In this document: positions 12,265 through 61,658 of the stretch, in pieces
How positions within the stretch are numbered: position 1 is the first letter of the stretch
Layout: each line of letters begins with the position of its first letter
NCBI GenBank assembly: GCA_011523385.1
Contig: WTGX01000006.1
Location: 4,121-68,120, forward strand
Direction: 5' to 3'
Length of the DNA: 64,000 bases
Source: Nitrospira sp.
Lineage (GTDB): Bacteria > Nitrospirota > Nitrospiria > Nitrospirales > UBA8639
Notes under the pieces: model-generated
Told to the model about the DNA's origin: nothing
The model's input: the letters and a program-made list of their open reading frames with translations, nothing else
Databases searched by the model: none
Position numbers and translations under genes: made by a program

Positions 12265-13521
12265 TCAGTTCCGACCAGAATGGTTTTTCGACTTCAACGA
12301 GTTCAAAAATTTGAACACCCATTTGGTTTTTCGGATTTTCTCGACAAAATCGCGGCACTCCGCCAATGTATAGGCGTTCCTTTCGCTGGCATGGGCGACT
12401 CGATTGCGGTCGTTACGTACAACATTGAGTTTTGCAAACGTATCGCGGGAAGTAAGAAACTCGCTATTGCGCCTCGTGGCTAATATGTAGCTTAGACCAA
12501 CGTTGGATCCCGCTTTTTCAAGCACTGTGATAATTTGCCCTAAACCACATATCTGGTTACGACGTGGGGCATCGTCACCAAGCAATTTTTCGATGTAAGC
12601 CCGCTTGGGCCGAAATACCTGATAATGAAATTCCGACTCTATCGACAGCGCCCAGCGTAGAGGAACTGACCGAGGATTGATTTTTATCCAATGCTTATCA
12701 CTCCACAATTCCGCCCCTACGACAAACTCCTTGGTTCTATTGTGGAGATCATCAAATAATGAGCCGCATTCATGTCTCAGTCTGTTCTGCGTAGCGTCCA
12801 AGTCTGCTTGGTATCGTGGATTCACAGCAGCGCGACTTAGTTCGTCCCTCCAGGAGATGGCTTCCGCAGATCCCACTGGAGACACATAGCCATCATCGGC
12901 ATAATCTTCAATAAGTTCGCAAAAATGTCTCGCTCGCTCAGGTTGTTTTAGGCGATAGTAGTAGAGAGAAACGAGACTGCCCAGCCAGATTTCGAGCAAA
13001 CTTCTCTCGCTCGAATCAAGCCTCTGATCGAAATGGTCACGCCCAAGCTCTCCGCGACGAACAAGAGTATATAAATGTTCATAGACAGCAATGGCATGAG
13101 CGTACATCTCACATTCCTCATACCAGCCGGCCACGCCCTCGCTCAGAATTAATTCGTCGAATGCAATGTCAGCTTCTTTCAGGAACATCGTCCATGCTGT
13201 TTTCAACTTACCTGCATCGTCAGCCTCAAGCGTCGAGTGCGTGAAGGAAAGGCGCTTAATGAGATGATCGTAGTCATTGCCAAACGGGATCTCGCAGAAA
13301 AGATCGAATCCTTTGCCTATGAGGTTTAGAAGTTCTTCGTCGGTTGGTGCCTCTGGACCGGATTGCGGTCTCGATTCAACGTCGCGACATTGCCTTTCCC
13401 ATTCGTCTTTCTTACGTCGTTCTTCACGCTCTTCACGCTTTCTTTCAGGATCGTTTATGAATTTCTCCCATAAGTTCCGCAATTCATCTGCATCTGCACT
13501 AAAAATATCCCCAGCTTTCAT
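12265..13521 (-). CDS. large hypothetical protein with a C-terminal HEPN-like domain (RNRVAH motif)
   Basis: Taken from ORF 12265..13599, started at the ATG at 13521, which is preceded by AGGAGG at a 5-nt spacing. The N-terminus is charged (KREEREERRKKDE), the middle is helical, and the C-terminus reads ..SIESEFHYQVF..LGQIITVLEK..LNVVRNDRNRVAHA, which fits an Rx4H HEPN motif. The region looks AT-richer than its flanks by eye. Confidence 0.55.
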   Translation of the reverse strand: MKAGDIFSADADELRNLWEKFINDPERKREEREERRKKDEWERQCRDVESRPQSGPEAPTDEELLNLIGKGFDLFCEIPFGNDYDHLIKRLSFTHSTLEADDAGKLKTAWTMFLKEADIAFDELILSEGVAGWYEECEMYAHAIAVYEHLYTLVRRGELGRDHFDQRLDSSERSLLEIWLGSLVSLYYYRLKQPERARHFCELIEDYADDGYVSPVGSAEAISWRDELSRAAVNPRYQADLDATQNRLRHECGSLFDDLHNRTKEFVVGAELWSDKHWIKINPRSVPLRWALSIESEFHYQVFRPKRAYIEKLLGDDAPRRNQICGLGQIITVLEKAGSNVGLSYILATRRNSEFLTSRDTFAKLNVVRNDRNRVAHASERNAYTLAECRDFVEKIRKTKWVFKFLNSLKSKNHSGRN

Positions 13522-13712
13522 AAATCCTCCTGAACGAAATACGTCGTCACATAATTCTTCTTTCCATATTGCTGTGGTTGGCCTAAATGAGAAAAACAAA
13601 TTTCAGCGGAGCCGGGCCGACACCTAGTAAGTTGATCGAAGAATCAGACTCGCGATTTCGGGAACCCGCATGCCTTACTCTTTAAAAACCTGTGCAGCGA
13701 GTGGGAAAGTGC

Positions 13713-18978: not shown

Positions 18979-20049
18979 CTAACCGATGCTTTGAAGAATA
19001 CGGTCGCTCATCTCTTTGGTGCCCACGAGGGTGGTTCCAGGTGCCGCGATGTCTCCGGTTCGGCACCCCTGGCCCAACACGGCCTGAATCGCGTTCTCGA
19101 TAAGGTCCGCTTCCTCGCCCATACCGAACGAATACCGGAGCATCATCGCGCCGGAGGCGATCATGCCGATAGGGTTGGCTGCATCCTTGCCCGCAATATC
19201 CGGAGCGCTCCCGTGAATGGGTTCATACATGCCGACGGACGCGCCGACGCTGGCCGACGGCAACATCCCGATCGACCCGGTCAACATGGCGGCTTCGTCA
19301 CTCAAAATGTCACCGAACAGATTCGTCGTCAGGAGCACGTCAAACTGTTTCGGGTTCCAGATCAACTGCATCGCGCAATTATCCACGTACATGTGTCGCA
19401 GTTCCACGTCCTGATAGTCCTTGTGGACCTCGATGACGATCTTCCGCCACAACTCCGAGGATTCCAGTACGTTTGCCTTGTCCACGGAAGTGACGACCCC
19501 CCGGCGTTTGCGTGCCACGTCGAAGGCGACCTTGGCGATCCGCGTAATTTCTTCCGTTGTATAGACTTCGGTGTTAAATCCGCGATGGCCGGTCGGCGTC
19601 GCCTCCACGCCTTTGGGCTTCCCGAAATAAATGCCGCCCGTCAGTTCACGCACCACCAGCACGTCAATGCCCTCAATGACCTCGCGCTTGAGCGTCGAGG
19701 CATCGGCCAATTCCGAATACAGCTTGGCTGGCCGAAGATTCGCAAACAGCCCGAGTTGTTCCCTCAGACCCAGCAACGCCCGTTCCGGCCGCCGCTCATA
19801 ATCGAGGCCTTCCCATTTCGGTCCTCCCACCGCCCCCAACAGGACCGCGTCACTGGTTTTGGCCAACTGAAGCGTGTCGTCCGGGAGCGGCCATCCCGTG
19901 TTGTCAATGGCCTGACCGCCGACCGCGGCGTGAACAAACTCAAACGCATGGCCGCCGCGTTTTCCGACCGCTTCCAACACCGCCACGGCCGCCGGCACGA
20001 TTTCGGGGCCGATTCCGTCCCCCGCCAAAACTGCGATCTTCTTCATCAT
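18979..20049 (-). CDS. leuB: 3-isopropylmalate dehydrogenase
   Basis: Contains [17 protein letters not shown] and [25 protein letters not shown]. The nine upstream codons of the ORF are encoded by a repeat element. Confidence 0.95.
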
Positions 20050-20112
20050 AGCTTCTTCTTCACCCTTACCCATCAAGGGAGAGGGGACTATTTCCCGCCT
20101 CCTTGTGCTTGC

Positions 20113-20550
20113 CTATTCGAGGTGGGCGATTTCGACGTCGCCCCAGTGTTGCTTCAGATACCCCGCGACGAGCCGCCGGTGACAGTGGTGCGGCTTGTCC
20201 TCGCTGCATAGCAGGCAGCCGTCCGCGATGACCTCCTTGGGGACGGTCTCCTCGATGCGGCGTTGTCTCATGAGTTCCAGAAAACTGATCTCATACGTGC
20301 TCCAATCGCCACGCCGTTTCTTGTAGCCGTCCAACATCTCCTGCGTGGGAGCCAGTTCGGGCACATGGATATACTCCATCCCACAGATCTTCTGCAAGAA
20401 CCAAGCGAGGTCGTCCCTCTTCGCAAAGCCCGCAAGCTGGGACACGTTGTTGAGCCGCACGTCCACGACCCGCTTGGCCCCGGACTCACGCAAGAGATCG
20501 AAAAACCGACGTGCCGGTTTCTTCGTGAACCCGATCGTGAAAACCTTCAT
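20113..20550 (-). CDS. DUF488-family protein (145 aa)
   Basis: Contains TIGFTKK..F..LL...G...VVDVR.., then C.E....CHRR, which is the DUF488 pattern. Its ATG overlaps the stop of the upstream paralogue (ATGA). Confidence 0.7.
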   Translation of the reverse strand: MKVFTIGFTKKPARRFFDLLRESGAKRVVDVRLNNVSQLAGFAKRDDLAWFLQKICGMEYIHVPELAPTQEMLDGYKKRRGDWSTYEISFLELMRQRRIEETVPKEVIADGCLLCSEDKPHHCHRRLVAGYLKQHWGDVEIAHLE

Positions 20551-21152
20551 GGTGTTTCTACCTCAACATCCTGCCTCACATAGGAGATTAGTTCTTCCTG
20601 CCTAGCCAAGGCTTCCGCGAGTCTATCTTCCCTGGATAGAAAAAGATCTTCCTGGTTAGGCGCATCAAGCAATCTCTCCAGTGTAGCCTCATGCGGCTCC
20701 AAGCGTCCGTCCGGCAAAATATGCTCAATCGCAACCCCATGTCTGGCCAACACGCAAGCGACTAAAAGAGTACGGTGACACTCCAAAGGTTCCTGTTCCG
20801 CGCACATCAAGGCGACACGGTAATTGCTGGTGCTGCTGATGACGCACTCGATGCCTTCACGGAACAAGTCCGTTCTCGCCAGACGCGCATACTGTATGCG
20901 GCCATTCTCGTAGCACTCACTATCGTTTGATCTCGCGCCAAGCTCGCGCCCGAGAAATATGTACTCGATTCCATTCGTCTTTAGTACTTTTTCGAGTGCC
21001 TCACGATTAAACTGAAGATTGTGCCGACTGTAGGGTGCCGAACGCACGTCGGCCACAGCCGTGACCTCGTGTTTTCGCAGGAGCTTCACAAAAACATCCA
21101 ATGGATGATTGGAGTGTCCTATCGTTAAAACGATGCCCTTTTCGGAGATCAC
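20547..21152 (-). CDS. DUF488-family protein (201 aa, with a C-terminal extension)
   Basis: Contains TIGHSNHPLDVFVKLL..VTAVADVRSAPYS.. and MCAEQEPLECHRTLL, which is the DUF488 pattern. Confidence 0.7.
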   Translation of the reverse strand: MISEKGIVLTIGHSNHPLDVFVKLLRKHEVTAVADVRSAPYSRHNLQFNREALEKVLKTNGIEYIFLGRELGARSNDSECYENGRIQYARLARTDLFREGIECVISSTSNYRVALMCAEQEPLECHRTLLVACVLARHGVAIEHILPDGRLEPHEATLERLLDAPNQEDLFLSREDRLAEALARQEELISYVRQDVEVETP

Positions 21153-21172
21153 AACGCCTCTGCTTTTTCGGG

Positions 21173-21853
21173 CTAGATAACCTGGATAATGGTAGCAATC
21201 AGCTTGTAGCAGGCTTCCTTGAACGGCTCTCCAAGGCTGATGGTCAGAAAACTTTCACCAATCTCGTATTTGCCATCTGGTTTCGAAAGATACTCACGCT
21301 CATAAGAGGGATCCGTGATCCAAAGTGCGTATTCTTCTTCGGCGTACGAAAACCGTCCCTGCACCCGGCGTTTGAGATTACCGAATTCCTCGCCAGGCCT
21401 GAAGATGGACAATTGCACACGATCTACGTGGATCAAACGAAGCGAACTCTTCAAAGACTTCGTTAGTGCTAGTGGTATCTGATCATTGCAGCCACGGTAG
21501 GTGCTATGCCCGTCGATCCACAACGGCGCGACCGGGTCGGCAAGTTGTTGCAATTTATCCAGGGAAAGATCACCCACCTTGGTCCAGTAAGAATCGGAAT
21601 CGAGCAGCCAGTTCTCCTGCTGATGGTTATTTGGCTTGGGAGACAGCAAGGGTACGTCGATGATATCAAGCACTTGAGGGTCGCGGCCGTTCTCATACTG
21701 GCGTTCATCTTCCGAGACTTCTTCGCCTTCGCGATCGCTGACGGGTCTGATCCAATTTCCGGGCCGGTTTCCGTCCCACAGTCTGCCCGCGATACAACGT
21801 CCGCTCCGCCTACGGGCGTTGGCGAGGCAGACGATGCGTTTGACGATCTTCAT
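21173..21853 (-). CDS. hypothetical protein with a CLAN..GRCIAG N-terminal motif (possibly a dual-OB-fold family; unverified)
   Basis: The 226-aa ORF lies 20 nt upstream of the first DUF488 gene on the same strand. It starts MKIVKRIVCLANARRRSGRCIAGR. I recognise no enzymatic motif. Confidence 0.5.
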   Translation of the reverse strand: MKIVKRIVCLANARRRSGRCIAGRLWDGNRPGNWIRPVSDREGEEVSEDERQYENGRDPQVLDIIDVPLLSPKPNNHQQENWLLDSDSYWTKVGDLSLDKLQQLADPVAPLWIDGHSTYRGCNDQIPLALTKSLKSSLRLIHVDRVQLSIFRPGEEFGNLKRRVQGRFSYAEEEYALWITDPSYEREYLSKPDGKYEIGESFLTISLGEPFKEACYKLIATIIQVI

Positions 21854-21961
21854 GGCCTGCTTCTTTCCTCACCCTCACCCCGGCCCTCTCCCGTCAAGGA
21901 CGAGGGAGAAAATACGAAGCTTCCTCTCCTTTCAAAAGAGAGGGAACTCTCTTCTGATCGA

Positions 21962-23509
21962 TCAACAAAGTCCGATTTTGTCTCCCACGTTGGCGCGGCG
22001 CTCCAATTGCGACGCCAGTTTATTCAGAGCATTCAGATAGGCTTGGGCCGAAGCCACGATGATATCGGTATTCGCCCCGTTCCCGGTGACGATTTCGCCG
22101 TCCTGTTCGACTCGCACCGACACCTCTCCTTGCGCGTCAGTCCCACCGGTGATGGCTTTGACCGCGTAGGCCAACAATTTGCTTTTGGTTTGCGTGATCC
22201 GGGCAATCGTTCGATAGACCGCGTCAACCGGACCATCGCCGGTGCCCGTCTCCTTCATCGCCTGCCCGTCCACCTCCAACTCCACGGTTGCCGTCGGCAA
22301 TTGATTCGTCCCGCTTTGGGTGCTCAGCGCCTTTAACGAATACCGTTCGGGCACCTTGGTGACGGCTTCGGACACAATCGATTCCAGATCTTCCTCGAAC
22401 AATTCCTTTTTCTGGTCCGCGAGCCGTTTGAATCGCTCGAACGCCGCGTTCACTTCTTCGTCCGAGAGCGCATAGCCCAACTTCGCCAACTCCGCTCGAA
22501 AGGCGTGGCGACCGGACAGTTTCCCCATCACCAGGCGGCTTTGCGTCAACCCGATGGAACCGGGCCGCATGATTTCATACGTGTTTTTATCCTTGAGCAA
22601 CCCGTCCTGGTGGATCCCGGAAGTATGCGCGAACGCGTTCGCCCCGACGATGGCCTTGTTGGGTTGGACGACCATCCCCGTGATCTTGCTGACCAGCCGG
22701 CTGGTCTTGGAAATTTCTTCGGTGCGAATCTGCGTCCCGGCATCATAAAAGTCCTTGCGGGTCCGCAGCCCCATCACGATCTCTTCCATCGACGCATTGC
22801 CGGCCCGTTCGCCGATGCCGTTGACCGTACATTCCACTTGCCCGGCGCCGGCGTGGATGGCCGCCATGGAATTGGCGACCGCCAACCCCAAATCATTGTG
22901 GCAATGCACGGAAATGATCGCCCGATCGCAGTCACGCACCCGCGTCCTGAGCGTTCGGATAATATCTTCAAATTCCTTGGGGGTCGTGTACCCCACGGTA
23001 TCGGGAATATTCACCGTACCCGCGCCTGCGTCCACGACCGCCTCCACGACTTCGCACAGGTAGGAGACGTCCGACCGCGTCGCGTCCATGGGGGAAAACT
23101 CAACGTCATCGACGTAGCTGCGCGCGTGCCGGACCATCTCGACCGCACGCTGAAGCGCTTCCTCTCGCGTCATGCGGAATTGGTGTTTCAGGTGAATGTC
23201 CGACGTGGACAGGAAGGTATGAATGCGCGGTTTGGGCGCCCCTTTCAATGCCTTCCACGCCGAATCAATGTCCGCAGGCTTGGCTCGTGCCAGGCTACAG
23301 ACCGTCGGGCCTTCCACCTCCTGCCCGATACGCTGCACCGCCTCGAAATCACCGGGGGAACTGAAGGCGAACCCGGCTTCGATAATATCGACGTTCAAGC
23401 GAGCCAGTTGTTTGGCGACCAGCACTTTTTCTTCCACGTTCATGCTGGCTCCCGGAGACTGCTCGCCGTCACGCAAAGTGGTGTCGAAAATTCTGATGTG
23501 TCGCTTCAT
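21962..23509 (-). CDS. leuA: 2-isopropylmalate synthase
   Basis: The 515-aa ORF contains IFDTTLRDGEQSPG and HCHNDLGLAVANS, plus a C-terminal LeuA dimerisation/regulatory domain. Confidence 0.95.
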   Translation of the reverse strand: MKRHIRIFDTTLRDGEQSPGASMNVEEKVLVAKQLARLNVDIIEAGFAFSSPGDFEAVQRIGQEVEGPTVCSLARAKPADIDSAWKALKGAPKPRIHTFLSTSDIHLKHQFRMTREEALQRAVEMVRHARSYVDDVEFSPMDATRSDVSYLCEVVEAVVDAGAGTVNIPDTVGYTTPKEFEDIIRTLRTRVRDCDRAIISVHCHNDLGLAVANSMAAIHAGAGQVECTVNGIGERAGNASMEEIVMGLRTRKDFYDAGTQIRTEEISKTSRLVSKITGMVVQPNKAIVGANAFAHTSGIHQDGLLKDKNTYEIMRPGSIGLTQSRLVMGKLSGRHAFRAELAKLGYALSDEEVNAAFERFKRLADQKKELFEEDLESIVSEAVTKVPERYSLKALSTQSGTNQLPTATVELEVDGQAMKETGTGDGPVDAVYRTIARITQTKSKLLAYAVKAITGGTDAQGEVSVRVEQDGEIVTGNGANTDIIVASAQAYLNALNKLASQLERRANVGDKIGLC

Positions 23510-27018: not shown

Positions 27019-27081
27019 CCCCCTCTCCCCTGGAGGGAGAGAGCCTGCCCCGGACTTGATCCGGGGGCTGGGGTGAGGGGG
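27019..27081. repeat. dual-hairpin REP-like element (copy in the ilvB-ilvN spacer)
   Basis: The sequence CCCTCTCCCCTGGAGGGAGAGAGCCTGCCCCGGACTTGATCCGGGGGCTGGGGTGAGGG is closely similar to 58588..58646. It contains two adjacent palindromes. Confidence 0.65.
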
Positions 27082-27096
27082 CCTCGTCGTTGCTCC

Positions 27097-33059: not shown

Positions 33060-33719
33060 TCATACTTGGGAACGAACGTTTCTGACAAAAAGCGGAATAT
33101 CTCGTTTCCAGAACTTTTGCCAACGCCACCCGTTTCCTGACGGAAGGTACGTGGCGGAAAGAATTGGGCGATGCGATGCTTCAAGCGGCTCCTCTCGGAC
33201 AGAGGAAAGGCTTCCTGCTTGAAACTTGCGTGCAAATTTTGAACGAGGCCAAAGCATGGAGACCGCCGTGGATGCGGGCCGACCAAGAGCCAGAATCGCA
33301 GAGGGCTGAAAGAATTCAATCTGCTGGTAGAGATGGGTCTTCACCTGATGCCTCAACAAAAGCTTCAGATCTTCACATCGTATCCCAGCGATGCTGCTTT
33401 TGAGCGGACGAGGGAAGGATTGCAGCAGATAGTAGCCCGAATCGCAGAATGCCGTGAACCCACGATCTGAACCGGAACGCGACAGCTTGAGAAGTGGAAG
33501 AAGTTTCTCGCGCAAGTCATCCTGTTTCGCATTCAGAGGTTGAATGGTCCAGAAGCCGCCATCCGGCGGAGGCGCTTCGGAAATAAAGAGAATGGCATTT
33601 CGTCGAGGTTCAGGGAGCGTCGGCCAATTTCCTTTGAAAGGATCAAACACGCGACCTTCAACACTCTGACACATGCGACAGGTGCGAATCGATTCTTGAA
33701 TGTCCTGCCAACTTGTCAT
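33060..33719 (-). CDS. divergent uracil-DNA-glycosylase-superfamily-like protein
   Basis: Contains an N-terminal CRMC, then ILFISEAPPPDG at the place of the GEAPG motif and PSAILALG later on. The C-terminal His motif is not recognisable. The assignment is tentative. Confidence 0.4.
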   Translation of the reverse strand: MTSWQDIQESIRTCRMCQSVEGRVFDPFKGNWPTLPEPRRNAILFISEAPPPDGGFWTIQPLNAKQDDLREKLLPLLKLSRSGSDRGFTAFCDSGYYLLQSFPRPLKSSIAGIRCEDLKLLLRHQVKTHLYQQIEFFQPSAILALGRPASTAVSMLWPRSKFARKFQAGSLSSVREEPLEASHRPILSATYLPSGNGWRWQKFWKRDIPLFVRNVRSQV

Positions 33720-33927
33720 AGAAGCTGCCTTAACTCGGTTGCTTATACACAAGGCCAATACTACCAGAACGTACTTAACCGTTCACGTCTACATTGAAGC
33801 GTGTCGTTGCACCGGAAAATGCGTTCCCGATTCCCTACCCTATTGAATTACGCTCTTGAGTAAATTAACTCAATGCAGTTTTCACAAGCGCCAAAAGCAG
33901 GGCGTGACAAGCCTATTCTCGGCTCCT

Positions 33928-57734: not shown

Positions 57735-58643
57735 ATGGAAATCAATACCGACACGCAATTGTGCGGCGTCCTCGGCCATCCGGTGAAGCACTCGCTGTCT
57801 CCGGCCATTCACAATGCCGCGTTTCAGCACTTGGGGCTGAATTACGTGTACCTCGCGTTTCCCGTTGAAGACGTGCCTCACGCTCTCCACGGAATCCGCG
57901 CGTTGGGCAACCTCAGGGGGTTCAGCGTCACGATCCCCCATAAAGTGTCGGTCATGGCCCACCTGGATACGATCGAGCCGGCGGCCCGGCACATCGGCGC
58001 CGTCAATACCATCGTGAAAGAGGACCAAACCCTGGCCGGATACAATACGGACGCCTCCGGCGCCCTCCTGGCGTTACAGCACGCAGGCGTGGCACTAGAC
58101 GGGAAACACGTGGTCATGATCGGCTCCGGCGGGGCCGCACGAGCCATTGCATTCGGGCTCGCGCTGGAGACCCCGGTCAGCAGGCTCACGATCCTGGGGA
58201 TCGAAGAAGAAGAGCGCCAGACCCTCGCCCGCAACCTTCGTGAAGGCACGACGCTTCACGTTGAAGACCACACGCTCAACGCGGACACCCTGGAACCGGC
58301 CCTGGACCAGGCGCAGGTCATGATTCACTGCACTCCCGTGGGGATGGACCCCCACGTCGATCAGACCTGCGTGCCTCAGCAATTTTTGCATCCCGACCTG
58401 ACGGTCATGGACATCGTGTACAACCCATTGGATACGCGATTGCTGAAGGAAGCTCGAAACGCCGGATCCCCCACGATCCGGGGTCTGGAAATGTTCCTGC
58501 ATCAGGCTGTCGCCCAATTCGAGTTGTGGACGGGCCAACCCGCCCCGGTCCCCGTCATGCGTCAGGTCCTGGAGTCCCGCTTTTCATCTCCCTCTCCCAC
58601 TGGGAGAGGGCCTGCCCCGGACTCGATCCGGGGGCCGGGGTGA
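57735..58643 (+). CDS. aroE: shikimate dehydrogenase
   Basis: Contains GHPVKHSLSPAIHNAAF, SVTIPHK and NTD. The last about 18 codons and the stop come from a repeat element. Confidence 0.92.
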   Translation: MEINTDTQLCGVLGHPVKHSLSPAIHNAAFQHLGLNYVYLAFPVEDVPHALHGIRALGNLRGFSVTIPHKVSVMAHLDTIEPAARHIGAVNTIVKEDQTLAGYNTDASGALLALQHAGVALDGKHVVMIGSGGAARAIAFGLALETPVSRLTILGIEEEERQTLARNLREGTTLHVEDHTLNADTLEPALDQAQVMIHCTPVGMDPHVDQTCVPQQFLHPDLTVMDIVYNPLDTRLLKEARNAGSPTIRGLEMFLHQAVAQFELWTGQPAPVPVMRQVLESRFSSPSPTGRGPAPDSIRGPG

Positions 58644-58646
58644 GGG
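58588..58646. repeat. dual-hairpin REP-like element (copy at the aroE-aroK junction)
   Basis: The sequence CCCTCTCCCACTGGGAGAGGGCCTGCCCCGGACTCGATCCGGGGGCCGGGGTGAGGG closely matches 27019..27081. Confidence 0.65.
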
Positions 58647-58648
58647 CC

Positions 58649-59167
58649 ATGAATCTGGTGCTCATCGGGTATCGGGGCACGGGGAAAAGCACGGTTGCGG
58701 AACTCCTCGCCACGCAACTTGGATGGAGGGCGATTTCAACGGACGCGCAAATCGTTGAACAGGCGCACATGACAATTCCGGACATTGTGGCCGGCAACGG
58801 GTGGGACCATTTCCGCACTCTCGAAACCGGGGTATGCCTCGCACTCAAAGACCAGGACCGCCTGGTCATCGATACCGGCGGGGGGATCATCCTCCGACCG
58901 GAAAACATGGCAGCGTTGAAGCCCAACGGCCTGGTGTTCTGGCTGACCGCCACAGTCACGACGATTACCCGGCGGATTTCGGATGACACGCAACGCCCGG
59001 CACTCACCGCGGGAAAGACGTTTCTCGAGGAAATTCAGGAAGTCCTGACCGAACGGACCTCGAAATATCAAGCCGCGGCCGATCACACCATTGCGACCGA
59101 CGACCACTCACCGGAGGAGATCGTCTCTCAAATCCTGACCATTGCCCGCAGCCACGGAATCAATTGA
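58649..59167 (+). CDS. aroK: shikimate kinase
   Basis: Starts MNLVLIGYRGTGKSTVAELLA (Walker A). The start is set at the internal ATG 58649, 3 nt after the aroE stop codon. Confidence 0.92.
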   Translation: MNLVLIGYRGTGKSTVAELLATQLGWRAISTDAQIVEQAHMTIPDIVAGNGWDHFRTLETGVCLALKDQDRLVIDTGGGIILRPENMAALKPNGLVFWLTATVTTITRRISDDTQRPALTAGKTFLEEIQEVLTERTSKYQAAADHTIATDDHSPEEIVSQILTIARSHGIN

Positions 59168-59218: not shown

Positions 59219-60190
59219 TCAGAGCAATCGCAGGCCATGATGAAAAATTTCCTGTGTGAATTGTTCCCACTTTTCGGGATCGTTTATAATCTCGGAAAGA
59301 TCAAATATCTGTTCGAGTCGAAATCCCAAGGCCTTCAAACGCTTTCCCATCTCTGCCGTACAAACTCCCACAATCAAATAATCCTTTGATGTGTTGGGTG
59401 TTTCTCCCGCACTCTTTTGAAACGCCCCAAGCCGTTCAAGTGCCCCGGCTGGGTCCGTTCCGGCCTTGATCTCAATCGTTGCGACAATCTGCCATTCCCC
59501 ATTCCGCACTTTCCTCTTGAATGCAATGTCCGGGTCGATACCAAAAGTCATTCGCACCTCGTTTGACAACATCCAATCCTTCGTTGGTTCCGTCGCATCT
59601 GTTCCGGTGTAGGGGCGCAGATCAATCCGACTCTGCGTTTGGAGCCACGCAACCAATGCGTTCTGAACCGCCTTTTCCCCCTCTCGTCCGATGATATTCC
59701 GAATCGAACCATCCGCCGTAATACCTATCGTTGCCAAAACATTCCGGTATCCGTTTTCCAATACCCAATCGTCTGCATCCATAATAATTGATGAGATAAT
59801 CGAGTTGTACAATCGTGCGATCTTTTGACACTTTTCCGTTGTTGGACGACGGTTCTTTGGCCATGATCCGTCTTCCCAGGAAACCACACTTCCCGCAATT
59901 GTCTGAACCCGCTTCAGCGATAAAAGGGCTATCCCCCGATAGTGCAATGATACATCTGGGCTCTGCTGCAACATAATCGGATGGACAAAGACAAACTTCG
60001 GGTCTATCCCTGAAGAGATGACATGCTGCCAAGCCTCTTGCGCGATTGCCAATTCCACAAGGTCTCGTTCGTAATCTGACACGCTCAAGGCAAACGAGTC
60101 GATTTTCTTCCTCGCCTTTAGTTCAGCACGTTCCCGTATTCGCCGAGAAATGATAGTGGCACGGGTTTTTGACTCTTGCAATTTATCCAT
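59219..60190 (-). CDS. putative type II restriction endonuclease (PD-(D/E)xK)
   Basis: Contains ..GIDPDIAF..(17 aa)..ATIEIKAG, which fits a D...ExK nuclease core. The gene lies downstream of, and overlaps by 8 nt, a DNA methyltransferase gene. The start is set at MDKLQES. The region looks AT-richer by eye. Confidence 0.55.
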   Translation of the reverse strand: MDKLQESKTRATIISRRIRERAELKARKKIDSFALSVSDYERDLVELAIAQEAWQHVISSGIDPKFVFVHPIMLQQSPDVSLHYRGIALLSLKRVQTIAGSVVSWEDGSWPKNRRPTTEKCQKIARLYNSIISSIIMDADDWVLENGYRNVLATIGITADGSIRNIIGREGEKAVQNALVAWLQTQSRIDLRPYTGTDATEPTKDWMLSNEVRMTFGIDPDIAFKRKVRNGEWQIVATIEIKAGTDPAGALERLGAFQKSAGETPNTSKDYLIVGVCTAEMGKRLKALGFRLEQIFDLSEIINDPEKWEQFTQEIFHHGLRLL

Positions 60191-61658
60191 CAGGCTTTTC
60201 CCAATGATAGACGCATTTTCGTATTTCGTGCCTCCCGAACCGTCCCATTTGCTGACTGGAATTGCCTTTTCCGCGCTCAAGCATCCGAATGGTCTGACAC
60301 CGGAAACCGGATTGCTCTGCAAAATCTGATAAAATCAGGTCAACAGGAACCTCCTCCCCATGATACCGAACGTTGTCATTCACCATGAAGACGCTTCCAC
60401 CCGGTCTGACCACCCGACCCAGCTCCCTTACGACAACAGCCATCTCCGTAAAATAATTTTTCACAAGTCGGATCACGTTGCGATTGCTCAACTCGTGGGC
60501 TTGTTCAGTCAGATTGTCAAGAATCTCTTGAAGGGCGGGCTGCTCATCAGCCATCCGAAATGCTTCCCTTGCGAGTGAGTCCTCACCGTAGTCTTTCTCG
60601 ATGGACGTGCGTTTTGAGCCGTTCTCTACGGTTGCCGACAACAACGACTGCCGTAACGCTTTCAACTGTTCGTGTCCGTAGCCGAGGTATTCCAACTCCA
60701 ACGCATACGTCCGCGTGTAATCATATCGGTTGGCATAGGGCGGCGACGTGACAACGGCGTCTACCGAGTTTGCCTGTAGCTTTTTGAGTTCGTTGAGGCT
60801 CGATCCGTTAACAAGTGTAGGGATATGACCGGCATATGTCCTCTCCAGTATTGGGATGTCCGCAATGATTTCGGATATACGCTTTCCCAAGGCTTCCCTA
60901 ACGGTCGGAAGCGGTCCTTTATCCAACTTGGGGCTCACGACCCGTCCAGATTGAGGGTCCCATCGAAGAAACTGGCCGTCTTTCCGCGTATAACTCACGT
61001 CCTCCAAAATACTTACACAAGCAAGTGTCAAGACCGTTGCAATTGCCGGATCATCAATTTTTGAGATGAACATCTGCGCCCGCATCAATGCAGATTCGGT
61101 CTTCCGGGGATACGCGCCTTGCGTAATCGGCATCTGCTCCATACGGTTTCCTGTCCCGTGAACGCTATACTGGACAAGAGCTTTCGCTTGTTTTTCTAAG
61201 CAACCCATATCAATTCCATTCGACGCATACGCCACCGCCATGGCAGCCAGATTCCCGACTGGCATAATCTCAATCCCTGTCCCAACGTGCCCGAGACCAG
61301 TAGCGGCCACAACCGTCGTCCCTACACCAGAAAACGGATCGAGAACATGAGTTCCTTGTTGTTGGGGGAGAAGTGTCCGAACAAGGGATCTGGAAAACCC
61401 TTCCTTGTATTTGAACCACCGGAACCCTGGTTCATGCTTATTTCCTTGATAGGACACCAGTTTCCGGTTGAGACCGACATCTACGAACATCCGATCACAG
61501 AATCGACGAAACAAGTCGTTCCGCTCTTGGGTCTTTTTCCCATTAGAGGACAAGACGGCAGTTAACGGGAAAGCTCTCTGCAAAGAGCCATCTAACCTGA
61601 CGTCTCTCTCTATCTGATCAAAACCAAACTCCTGTTGCTGTAGAAGCCCGTCCCTCAT
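60183..61658 (-). CDS. DNA methyltransferase (N4-C/N6-A type, SPPY motif)
   Basis: Contains the AdoMet motif LDPFSGVGTT followed about 170 aa later by VVTSPPYANRYDY, an alpha-like motif order. Confidence 0.85.
   Translation of the reverse strand: MRDGLLQQQEFGFDQIERDVRLDGSLQRAFPLTAVLSSNGKKTQERNDLFRRFCDRMFVDVGLNRKLVSYQGNKHEPGFRWFKYKEGFSRSLVRTLLPQQQGTHVLDPFSGVGTTVVAATGLGHVGTGIEIMPVGNLAAMAVAYASNGIDMGCLEKQAKALVQYSVHGTGNRMEQMPITQGAYPRKTESALMRAQMFISKIDDPAIATVLTLACVSILEDVSYTRKDGQFLRWDPQSGRVVSPKLDKGPLPTVREALGKRISEIIADIPILERTYAGHIPTLVNGSSLNELKKLQANSVDAVVTSPPYANRYDYTRTYALELEYLGYGHEQLKALRQSLLSATVENGSKRTSIEKDYGEDSLAREAFRMADEQPALQEILDNLTEQAHELSNRNVIRLVKNYFTEMAVVVRELGRVVRPGGSVFMVNDNVRYHGEEVPVDLILSDFAEQSGFRCQTIRMLERGKGNSSQQMGRFGRHEIRKCVYHWEKPDG

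Follow-up and report, generated by a model that had tools for sequence, protein, structure and literature searches.

A cassette between leuA and leuB of Nitrospira sp. that matches the phage defence candidate PDC-M45

A set of 145 phage defence candidates (PDCs), derived from cassettes embedded in BREX, DISARM, and type I restriction-modification (R-M) systems, has been added to PADLOC (Payne, Hughes, Fineran & Jackson 2024, bioRxiv 10.1101/2024.01.29.577857). In Table S8 of that study, the cassette CAS_00153, which consists of three protein families in a row, is assigned to PDC-M45, and the embedding-derived candidates are described as mostly "solo". A literature search returned no paper mentioning PDC-M45, which is also not among the candidates tested elsewhere. 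Here, we describe a cassette of approximately 1.75 kb in a 64,000-nucleotide stretch of the Nitrospira sp. contig WTGX01000006.1 (the whole stretch is hereafter called the window). It comprises three co-directional genes, A, B, and C, which are sandwiched between leuA and leuB and encode a dual OB-fold (DuOB) protein and two DUF488 proteins. All three proteins match the PDC-M45 models.

Identity and insertion of the leuA-leuB cassette

Gene A (21173..21853, minus strand) encodes a 226-aa protein with the N-terminus MKIVKRIVCLANARRRSGRCIAGR. A resemblance to dual OB-fold proteins had been suspected for it, and the profile search places it in the Pfam family DuOB (PF22557) over the full length of the profile (238.6 bits against a cut-off of 27; positions 1-210 of 210), not in a well-understood housekeeping family. 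The products of gene B (20547..21152, minus strand; 201 aa, GTG start) and gene C (20113..20550, minus strand; 145 aa) had been taken for DUF488 paralogues, and both indeed match Pfam DUF488 (PF04343), with 83.3 and 83.2 bits, respectively (cut-off 22.2). C also passes the cut-off of 27 for DUF488-N3a (PF22751), the "active N3 subclade", with 37.5 bits, whereas B fails it with 14.1 bits. C is a minimal DUF488 enzyme, and B carries a C-terminal extension of approximately 60 aa. No NCBIfam profile matched A, B, or C. The DUF488 family includes E. coli YeaO.

Searching the PADLOC models gave nearly end-to-end matches for all three proteins. A matches PDC-M45A (PDLC04653) with an E-value of 8.4e-94 (residues 1-224, profile 1-224 of 230), B matches PDC-M45B (PDLC04657) with 2.7e-81 (residues 7-197, profile 5-197 of 204), and C matches PDC-M45C (PDLC04658) with 3.2e-76 (residues 1-144, profile 1-144 of 145). 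The genes are adjacent and co-directional in the order A>>B>>C, which is the order of the PDC-M45 cassette definition, FAM_01974>>FAM_00888>>FAM_01897. The original prediction knew of no described system with this architecture, a claim that falls with these matches and with the existence of DuOB and DUF488-N3a as curated Pfam families. Since this architecture is in the catalogue and curated models exist for its domains, we identify the cassette from its sequence as a copy of PDC-M45 and not as a new kind of system. The copies differ in location. PDC-M45 was defined from cassettes inside BREX, DISARM, or type I R-M systems, whereas the window copy lies inside a leucine-biosynthesis operon with no defence gene near it.

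An ORF check reproduced the coordinates and lengths of the three reading frames given in the original prediction, as well as the N-terminus of A, the 20-nt gap between A and B, and the overlap of B and C. In this overlap, the stop codon of B and the start codon of C share an ATGA (20547..20550, minus strand), an arrangement indicative of translational coupling. The upstream flank is leuA (21962..23509, minus strand; 2-isopropylmalate synthase) and the downstream flank is leuB (18979..20049, minus strand; 3-isopropylmalate dehydrogenase), which match Pfam HMGL-like/LeuA_dimer and Iso_dh, respectively, on the identical contig. The spacers measure 108 nt between leuA and A, and 63 nt between C and leuB. 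No promoter-like or convincing terminator-like site was found between the cassette and leuA or leuB, the promoter search using a sigma-70 consensus that may not fit Nitrospirota promoters. From this weak negative evidence, the cassette is likely co-transcribed with the leu genes. A strong terminator-like hairpin is present upstream of leuA (23675-23643). This hairpin, on the minus strand between pssA and leuA, has a 15-bp stem followed by a T-run, is terminator- or attenuator-like, and may mark where the upstream operon ends or serve as a leucine leader.

The prediction that the trio interrupts leuA and leuB as an extra insert is borne out by related genomes. Three Nitrospirales metagenome-assembled genomes (MAGs; L005, L006, and L009), with leuA genes 93-97% identical to that of the window, carry the trio at the same leuA-leuB site. 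In four other genomes (L170-L173), with leuA 82-92% identical, the junction is empty, leuA and leuB being 33, 22, or 26 nt apart or overlapping by 8 nt, and the synteny is identical (ilvC-psd-pssA-leuA-leuB-NHL-asd-DUF2905-spoIID-queA). Because these close syntenic relatives have a tight and empty junction, the comparison of the sequences identifies the cassette as a recent insertion of approximately 1.9 kb between leuA and leuB in one Nitrospirales subclade, where the two genes used to be tightly joined. The insertion is polymorphic, lineages with and without it differing by only approximately 8% in LeuA. The low GC content of A and B and the discordant relationships of gene C and the leu genes also speak for mobility and a recent arrival.

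In more distant relatives, the leuA-leuB junction is a spacer of 88-162 nt or holds a small cupin gene or leuC/leuD. The cupin ORF, of approximately 127 aa, occupies the junction in Nitrospira-like relatives (L090, L113, and approximately 20 similar loci), and in the more distant L119, L120, L127, L128, L141, and L155 the junction holds leuC, sometimes with a S-adenosylmethionine (SAM) methyltransferase gene, together with leuD. The possibility that the junction is a hotspot for defence cargo was rejected, as the other occupied junctions hold leuC/leuD or the cupin gene.

Within the cassette-bearing clade, the ratio of nonsynonymous to synonymous substitution rates (dN/dS; NG86) is 0.22-0.29 for A, 0.12-0.20 for B, and 0.11-0.20 for C, and 0.03-0.10 for leuA and leuB. 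These ratios indicate that A, B, and C are all under purifying selection. The C gene of the window is closest to that of L005 (dS 0.19), whereas its leuA and leuB are closest to those of L006 and L009. This incongruence and the host-like GC content at third codon positions (GC3) of C, which is unlike that of A and B, suggest that recombination has occurred inside the cassette. In L009, the DuOB gene (L009:10001-10674) contains a 1-nt frameshift near codon 30, which may be real decay or an assembly error.

We consider it somewhat probable that the cassette as a whole is a horizontally mobile DuOB-DUF488-DUF488 phage defence candidate of the PDC-M45 type, recently inserted between leuA and leuB, probably co-transcribed with the leu genes, and acting by a putative end-processing mechanism. 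The broader proposal of a nucleic-acid-directed module, for defence, repair, or modification, is a reasonable hypothesis.

Operon conservation and genomic context across phyla

A scan of GTDB with one genome per species confirmed 262 DuOB loci, of which the best 80 were surveyed. They come from Nitrospirales, Latescibacterota, Gemmatimonadota, Acidobacteriota, Binatia, Alpha- and Gammaproteobacteria, Rhodothermales, Spirochaetia, Thermodesulfobacteriota, Chloroflexota, Planctomycetota, and others, spanning more than 12 phyla. All three genes are intact and arranged A-B-C at 66 of the 80 loci, so the trio is a conserved operon in many phyla and its co-occurrence extends well beyond the Nitrospira lineage. 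The translational coupling proposed for B and C in the window recurs as well: a 4-nt ATGA overlap joins the two genes at 55 of the 66 intact loci. The distance between A and B at the intact loci is -4 in 18 cases and 2-22 nt in most others.

The three components differ in their degree of conservation. C is the most conserved, its top 120 homologue clusters being 79-99% identical to window C across phyla, and B is looser, with 47-65% identity outside the clade. For A, 2,910 scored matches were obtained, and the top 120 clusters are 62-97% identical and come from several phyla; the exact protein occurs on eight metagenome contigs in the same context. The DuOB family amounts to 3,625 clusters at 50% identity (E <= 1e-3), nearly all of which are stand-alone proteins of approximately 225 aa. 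On a Singulisphaera contig (L079:1757-3111), B and C are preceded by a tandem pair of DuOB genes whose products share 62% and 41% identity with window A.

A fourth gene, here called X, accompanies the trio at 47 of the 80 loci. It encodes a protein of approximately 410 aa with Schlafen/AlbA_2 (PF04326) and HATPase_c_4 (PF13749) domains and is located in the approximately 1.2 kb directly upstream of DuOB on the same strand (loci within L010-L084, e.g., L014:8735-9991), ending 6-129 nt, mostly 6-55 nt, before A. The X proteins are 66-100% identical to seven X queries drawn from several phyla. The PADLOC definition of PDC-M45 does not contain this gene, and its presence beside most solo copies is new beyond the PADLOC entry. 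The four-gene form has the same order and spacing as the window cassette, and its A, B, and C genes are orthologous to those of the window, with 58-70% identity for A and 55-83% for C. It differs in the upstream gene, in whose position the window has leuA; X was likewise not found at L005, L006, or L009. At one locus in a deltaproteobacterial MAG (L033:8210-9754), a DndB-like protein with a nucleoside 2-deoxyribosyltransferase/TIR-like C-terminus replaces the Schlafen-like protein upstream of DuOB.

The 13 loci in which B or C is lost or broken all carry X, except one that is cut by a contig end, and the trio is intact at all 32 complete loci without X. Genes that replace C at some loci were considered as alternative effectors and rejected. 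They are unrelated housekeeping genes, and those loci are therefore decayed and not alternative architectures.

These observations bear on whether the window copy might be a non-functional remnant that has lost its Schlafen-like gene and is hitch-hiking in the leu transcript. The absence of X from the window, L005, L006, and L009, the frameshift in the L009 DuOB gene, and the degraded repetitive extragenic palindrome (REP)-like elements at the cassette borders would fit such a remnant. However, dN/dS stays at 0.11-0.29 over all three genes across the clade, the reading frames of the window are all intact with all invariant residues, and X-less loci in other phyla keep intact trios while the decayed trios are found in X-bearing loci. 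We therefore regard a remnant as very improbable. The copy in the window, which naturally lacks the presumed sensor, sits in a housekeeping operon for which close relatives offer clear-cut occupied and empty sites; it, too, adds to the PADLOC entry.

The first gene on either side of the system that does not belong to it was then recorded for the 80 loci. HmaB (methylase) and/or HmaC (ATPase with a Swt1-like HEPN domain) flank the trio at 13 of them, including one in Nitrospira sp. KAN-bin2. Hma is a helicase-methylase-ATPase defence system (Payne et al. 2024), and orthologous trios lie between HmaB and HmaC in these Hma-embedded cassettes, most of which are without X; the window cassette differs from them in having no adjoining Hma genes. 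Other immediate neighbours match a DRT reverse transcriptase with RmuC, dGTPase, a type I methyltransferase, mad2, HEC-01A, HEC-03B, and several PDC models. On the conjugative Agrobacterium plasmid pAt1D1108a, the trio stands beside a CBASS (cyclase-HORMA-AAA), an ImmA/HTH pair, and TcmP/DUF5131. The co-occurrence with defence genes that was to be checked is thus found in the Hma loci, in the CBASS island, and on mobile replicons. Given these links and the empty junctions of its relatives, the cassette is neither fixed in the lineage nor free of mobile and defence associations.

A different role, in repair or maintenance, would have the DuOB protein recognise damage at single-stranded DNA or RNA ends, which the two DUF488 enzymes would then heal in the manner of RNA healing by Pnkp/Hen1 or Rtc, the module having been domesticated in the leu operon. 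Such a role is compatible with the housekeeping neighbours at most surveyed loci, with the position of the cassette inside the leu operon, where no promoter or terminator of its own was detected, and with purifying selection despite the missing Schlafen-like partner. The enzyme clade is associated with terminal-phosphate processing (PMC9503650), and this enzymology fits repair and defence equally. Nevertheless, the cassette is absent from close, fully syntenic genomes, it is scattered unevenly over phyla whose copies share 60-70% identity, it lies inside Hma systems or in a plasmid CBASS island in the cases described above, and decayed copies are frequent. Patchiness, defence embedding, and decay are features of accessory conflict genes and not of core repair genes. 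We therefore consider the repair role unlikely and prefer a function in phage defence.

A plasmid-borne variant extends the association with mobile DNA. On a Klebsiella plasmid, a variant DuOB gene, a C-type DUF488 gene (54% identical to window C), and a DUF4326 gene adjoin a NotI-type R-M system and a RelE toxin, and an Acinetobacter plasmid carries the same DuOB-DUF488-DUF4326 variant with a C-type DUF488 59% identical to window C. The variant is present on 23 plasmid records and is nearly the sole cargo of mobilizable plasmids of 4.2 kb, such as the tiny enterobacterial plasmids NZ_CP056340.1 (L174; 4167 bp) and CP052514.1. Its plasmid forms (Klebsiella, Citrobacter, Salmonella, and Acinetobacter) resemble the window cassette in having a DuOB protein, a C-type DUF488 with 54-59% identity to window C, and a second enzyme of the same broad clade. 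They differ in that DUF4326 replaces the B-type DUF488 and is placed after the C-type gene, in that the DuOB proteins are only approximately 30% identical, and in being plasmid-borne. This swap of DUF4326 for DUF488 is also new beyond the PADLOC entry.

The cargo status of the variant on such small plasmids raises the question of whether the module serves mobile elements, either by protecting or processing single-stranded DNA ends of plasmids during establishment or against defence, or as an addiction module, with the chromosomal copies as leftovers. The tight overlap of B and C resembles toxin-antitoxin organisation. On the other hand, B and C both keep full catalytic signatures and neither is a small neutraliser, purifying selection acts on the chromosomal copies in four species-level genomes, and plasmids often carry defence systems as cargo. 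Among the neighbours of the 80 loci, chromosomal copies show no recurrent integrase, transposase, or relaxase, and no integrase or transposase stands beside the cassette in the window. A service to mobile elements thus appears quite unlikely, and the defence candidate remains our preferred assignment.

Conserved residues, predicted structure, and candidate mechanism

The DUF488 signature (T-x-G-x-[ST], D-V-R, and C-x-E...C-H-R) is invariant in 38 C and 37 B orthologues and is kept in both window B and window C. Among the C orthologues, the invariant residues include T5-x-G7-x-T9-x-K11, in the loop after strand 1, and C112-L-L-C115-S-E117 and C123-H124-R125-R126, in strand 4 and the loop into the last long helix. 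Among 37 B orthologues, T10, G12, and S14, D35, V36, and R37, and C117, E119, P122, C125, H126, and R127 are invariant. Because both proteins keep the full signature, their genes are nearly always coupled, and one of them is swappable for DUF4326, the sequences suggest that B and C are two cooperating enzymes and not an enzyme with a dead partner.

A search of the Protein Data Bank (PDB) with the sequences of A, B, and C and with profiles of A and C found no related entry. Structures were compared through AlphaFold2 (AF2) models of A and C. The model of C (predicted local confidence, pLDDT, 86.7; predicted template-modelling score, pTM, 0.82) shows a five-stranded Rossmannoid alpha/beta domain. 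Its weak Foldseek matches include CobU, the N-domains of tetrapyrrole, diphthine, and borosin methylases, T4 polynucleotide kinase (PNK), and PTP4A1. In this model, the Cys/Glu/Cys-His-Arg loop between a strand and a helix (C115-x-E117-x5-C123-H-R125) coincides in position with the catalytic loop of cysteine phosphatases and rhodaneses. The model of A has a pLDDT of 61, with residues 125-224 forming a confident beta barrel. The best Foldseek matches of A are OB-fold binders of single-stranded nucleic acid, including the bacterial single-stranded-DNA-binding protein (SSB), baculovirus LEF-3, RADX, RMI, HIN-200, and uS12/uS17 (E = 0.09-0.5). A specific enzymatic homologue is not claimed for A or C, neither having a significant Foldseek neighbour.

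Two comparisons with known enzymes place these features. C resembles the rhodanese/cysteine-phosphatase superfamily in its Rossmannoid alpha/beta fold, in the conserved Cys, His, and Arg of the strand-helix loop, and in the weak match to PTP4A1; it differs in that DUF488 lacks the canonical C-x5-R motif and matches no PDB structure significantly. Work by Burroughs and Aravind from 2023 reportedly groups DUF488 with RapZ-C and DUF4326 in a rhodanese-phosphatase superfamily and predicts DNA-end processing in conflict systems. T4 polynucleotide kinase/phosphatase and Pnkp/Hen1 share with the cassette the proposed logic only, namely terminal phosphates in virus-host conflict, T4 PNK being among the weak structural matches of C. 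There is no sequence relationship to them, and the cassette has no ligase or methyltransferase partner. DUF4326, in a paper from the group of Burroughs and Aravind, is described as a rhodanese-phosphatase clade that probably processes ribose-linked terminal phosphates (PMC9503650).

In the mechanism we propose, the double-OB protein A would bind single-stranded nucleic acid or nucleic-acid termini and would recruit a hetero-oligomer of the translationally coupled enzymes B and C. These enzymes may then act on a terminal phosphate or ribose group at the ends of invader DNA or RNA, after which the modified invader genome could no longer be replicated, ligated, or packaged. In most genomes, the upstream Schlafen/AlbA_2-HATPase_c_4 protein is probably a sensor or regulator that senses the invader or licenses the reaction. 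The window copy would work without this protein or rely on something else.

Several observations weigh against the defence candidate and its proposed mechanism. Its neighbours in the window are housekeeping genes only, with no defence gene adjacent, and at most of the 80 surveyed loci, too, the flanking genes are metabolic and unrelated, in agreement with the description of embedding-derived candidates as mostly "solo" (Payne et al. 2024). The PDC status of PDC-M45 is based on embedding alone, and the searchable literature yielded no experimental function for any member of the system or for any DUF488 protein. Gene X was not found in the window by tblastn with seven X proteins over its whole length (best E = 0.02), leuA being upstream of A instead. 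No DuOB homologue was found in 50,697 phage genomes, which thus give no sign of a phage origin or of a counter-measure by phages; two IMG/VR contigs only carry the complete trio. At the level of structure, the N-terminal half of the A model has a pLDDT below 50, no Foldseek match is significant (best E = 0.09 for A and 0.017 for C), and the labels "OB fold" and "phosphatase-like" derive mainly from the Pfam assignment and the literature.

A bolder version of the defence function would make the cassette an immune effector that needs no partner and works by a new kind of chemistry. An OB-fold protein that reads single-stranded ends would deliver two phosphatase-superfamily enzymes that remodel invader termini covalently, and the Nitrospirales copy would have shed its Schlafen-like sensor and become wired into the leucine operon. 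We regard this version as doubtful. If it were true, cassette dosage would track amino-acid starvation signalling, and the widespread DUF488 family would gain its first biochemical function. DUF488 is a large family, and the trio, being compact, highly conserved, and easily cloned, offers a practical entry point to its biochemistry; that it turns up within Hma systems, within a CBASS island, and on very small plasmids adds to this value.

Composition and border repeats

The cassette had been described as more AT-rich than the leu genes. This applies to A and B, with GC contents of 0.526 and 0.515 (GC3 0.61 and 0.56), but not to C, whose GC content of 0.587 (GC3 0.80) is host-like; leuA and leuB have GC contents of 0.587 and 0.599 and GC3 of 0.73-0.74. 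A and B lie approximately 1.3-1.5 standard deviations under the mean of the window genes (0.580 +/- 0.042) and are among the six lowest of 42 called genes. The windowed GC content is 0.50-0.53 over 20600-21800, compared with 0.56-0.63 on the flanks.

Related palindromic repeats had been noted at both borders of the cassette. They are present, but they are not specific to it and belong to a dispersed REP-like family. The upstream junction, from the leuA stop to the A start (21854..21961, minus strand), contains two degraded REP-like palindromes (21922-21944 and 21884-21906) and a GGGTGAGGGTGA tail (21869-21880). The downstream junction, from the C stop to the leuB start (20050..20112, minus strand), contains one degraded REP-like palindrome (20063-20085) and a GGGTAAGGGTGA tail (20060-20071). 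The element, CCCCTCTCCCTTGAYGGGAGAGGG followed by YCAGGGTGAGGGTGA, stands at both borders in all four cassette-bearing genomes (the window, L005, L006, and L009), and the downstream border of L005 has a longer form with a second hairpin. The empty junctions of L170-L173 lack the element.

The 12-mer GGGTRAGGGTGA occurs exactly in the 64 kb at 20060-20071 and 21869-21880 only. With one further site at 1 mismatch, there are three matches, a number reached in 0 of 100 shuffles. Both exact copies come after a palindrome of the CCCTCTCCC...GGGAGAGGG type. Fuller copies of the family are located at approximately 27021-27090 and 58590-58660 and combine two hairpins, CCCTCTCCC-loop-GGGAGAGRG and then CCTGCCCCGGACTYGATCCGGGGGC, with a GGGGTGAGGG tail. 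In RNA folding compared with shuffled sequences, the border copies gave z-scores of -1.5 and +0.4, no better than shuffled, and the copy at 58575-58670 gave -2.5. The border palindromes were therefore rejected as cassette termini or att sites, being members of a dispersed family that fold no better than shuffles. Neither cassette-specific inverted or direct repeats nor a target-site duplication was found at the two ends, the border repeats recurring elsewhere in the window. We read them as REP-like elements that colonised the new intergenic spaces or came with them.

Further low-GC ORFs are present in the window at 12265-13599, 33060-33758, and 60183-61658, all on the minus strand, and may be additional foreign genes. 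Two of them, of 444 aa (GC 0.47) and 232 aa (GC 0.515), have no Pfam match, and the third, of 491 aa (GC 0.51), matches a fragment of the N6_N4 DNA-methylase family.

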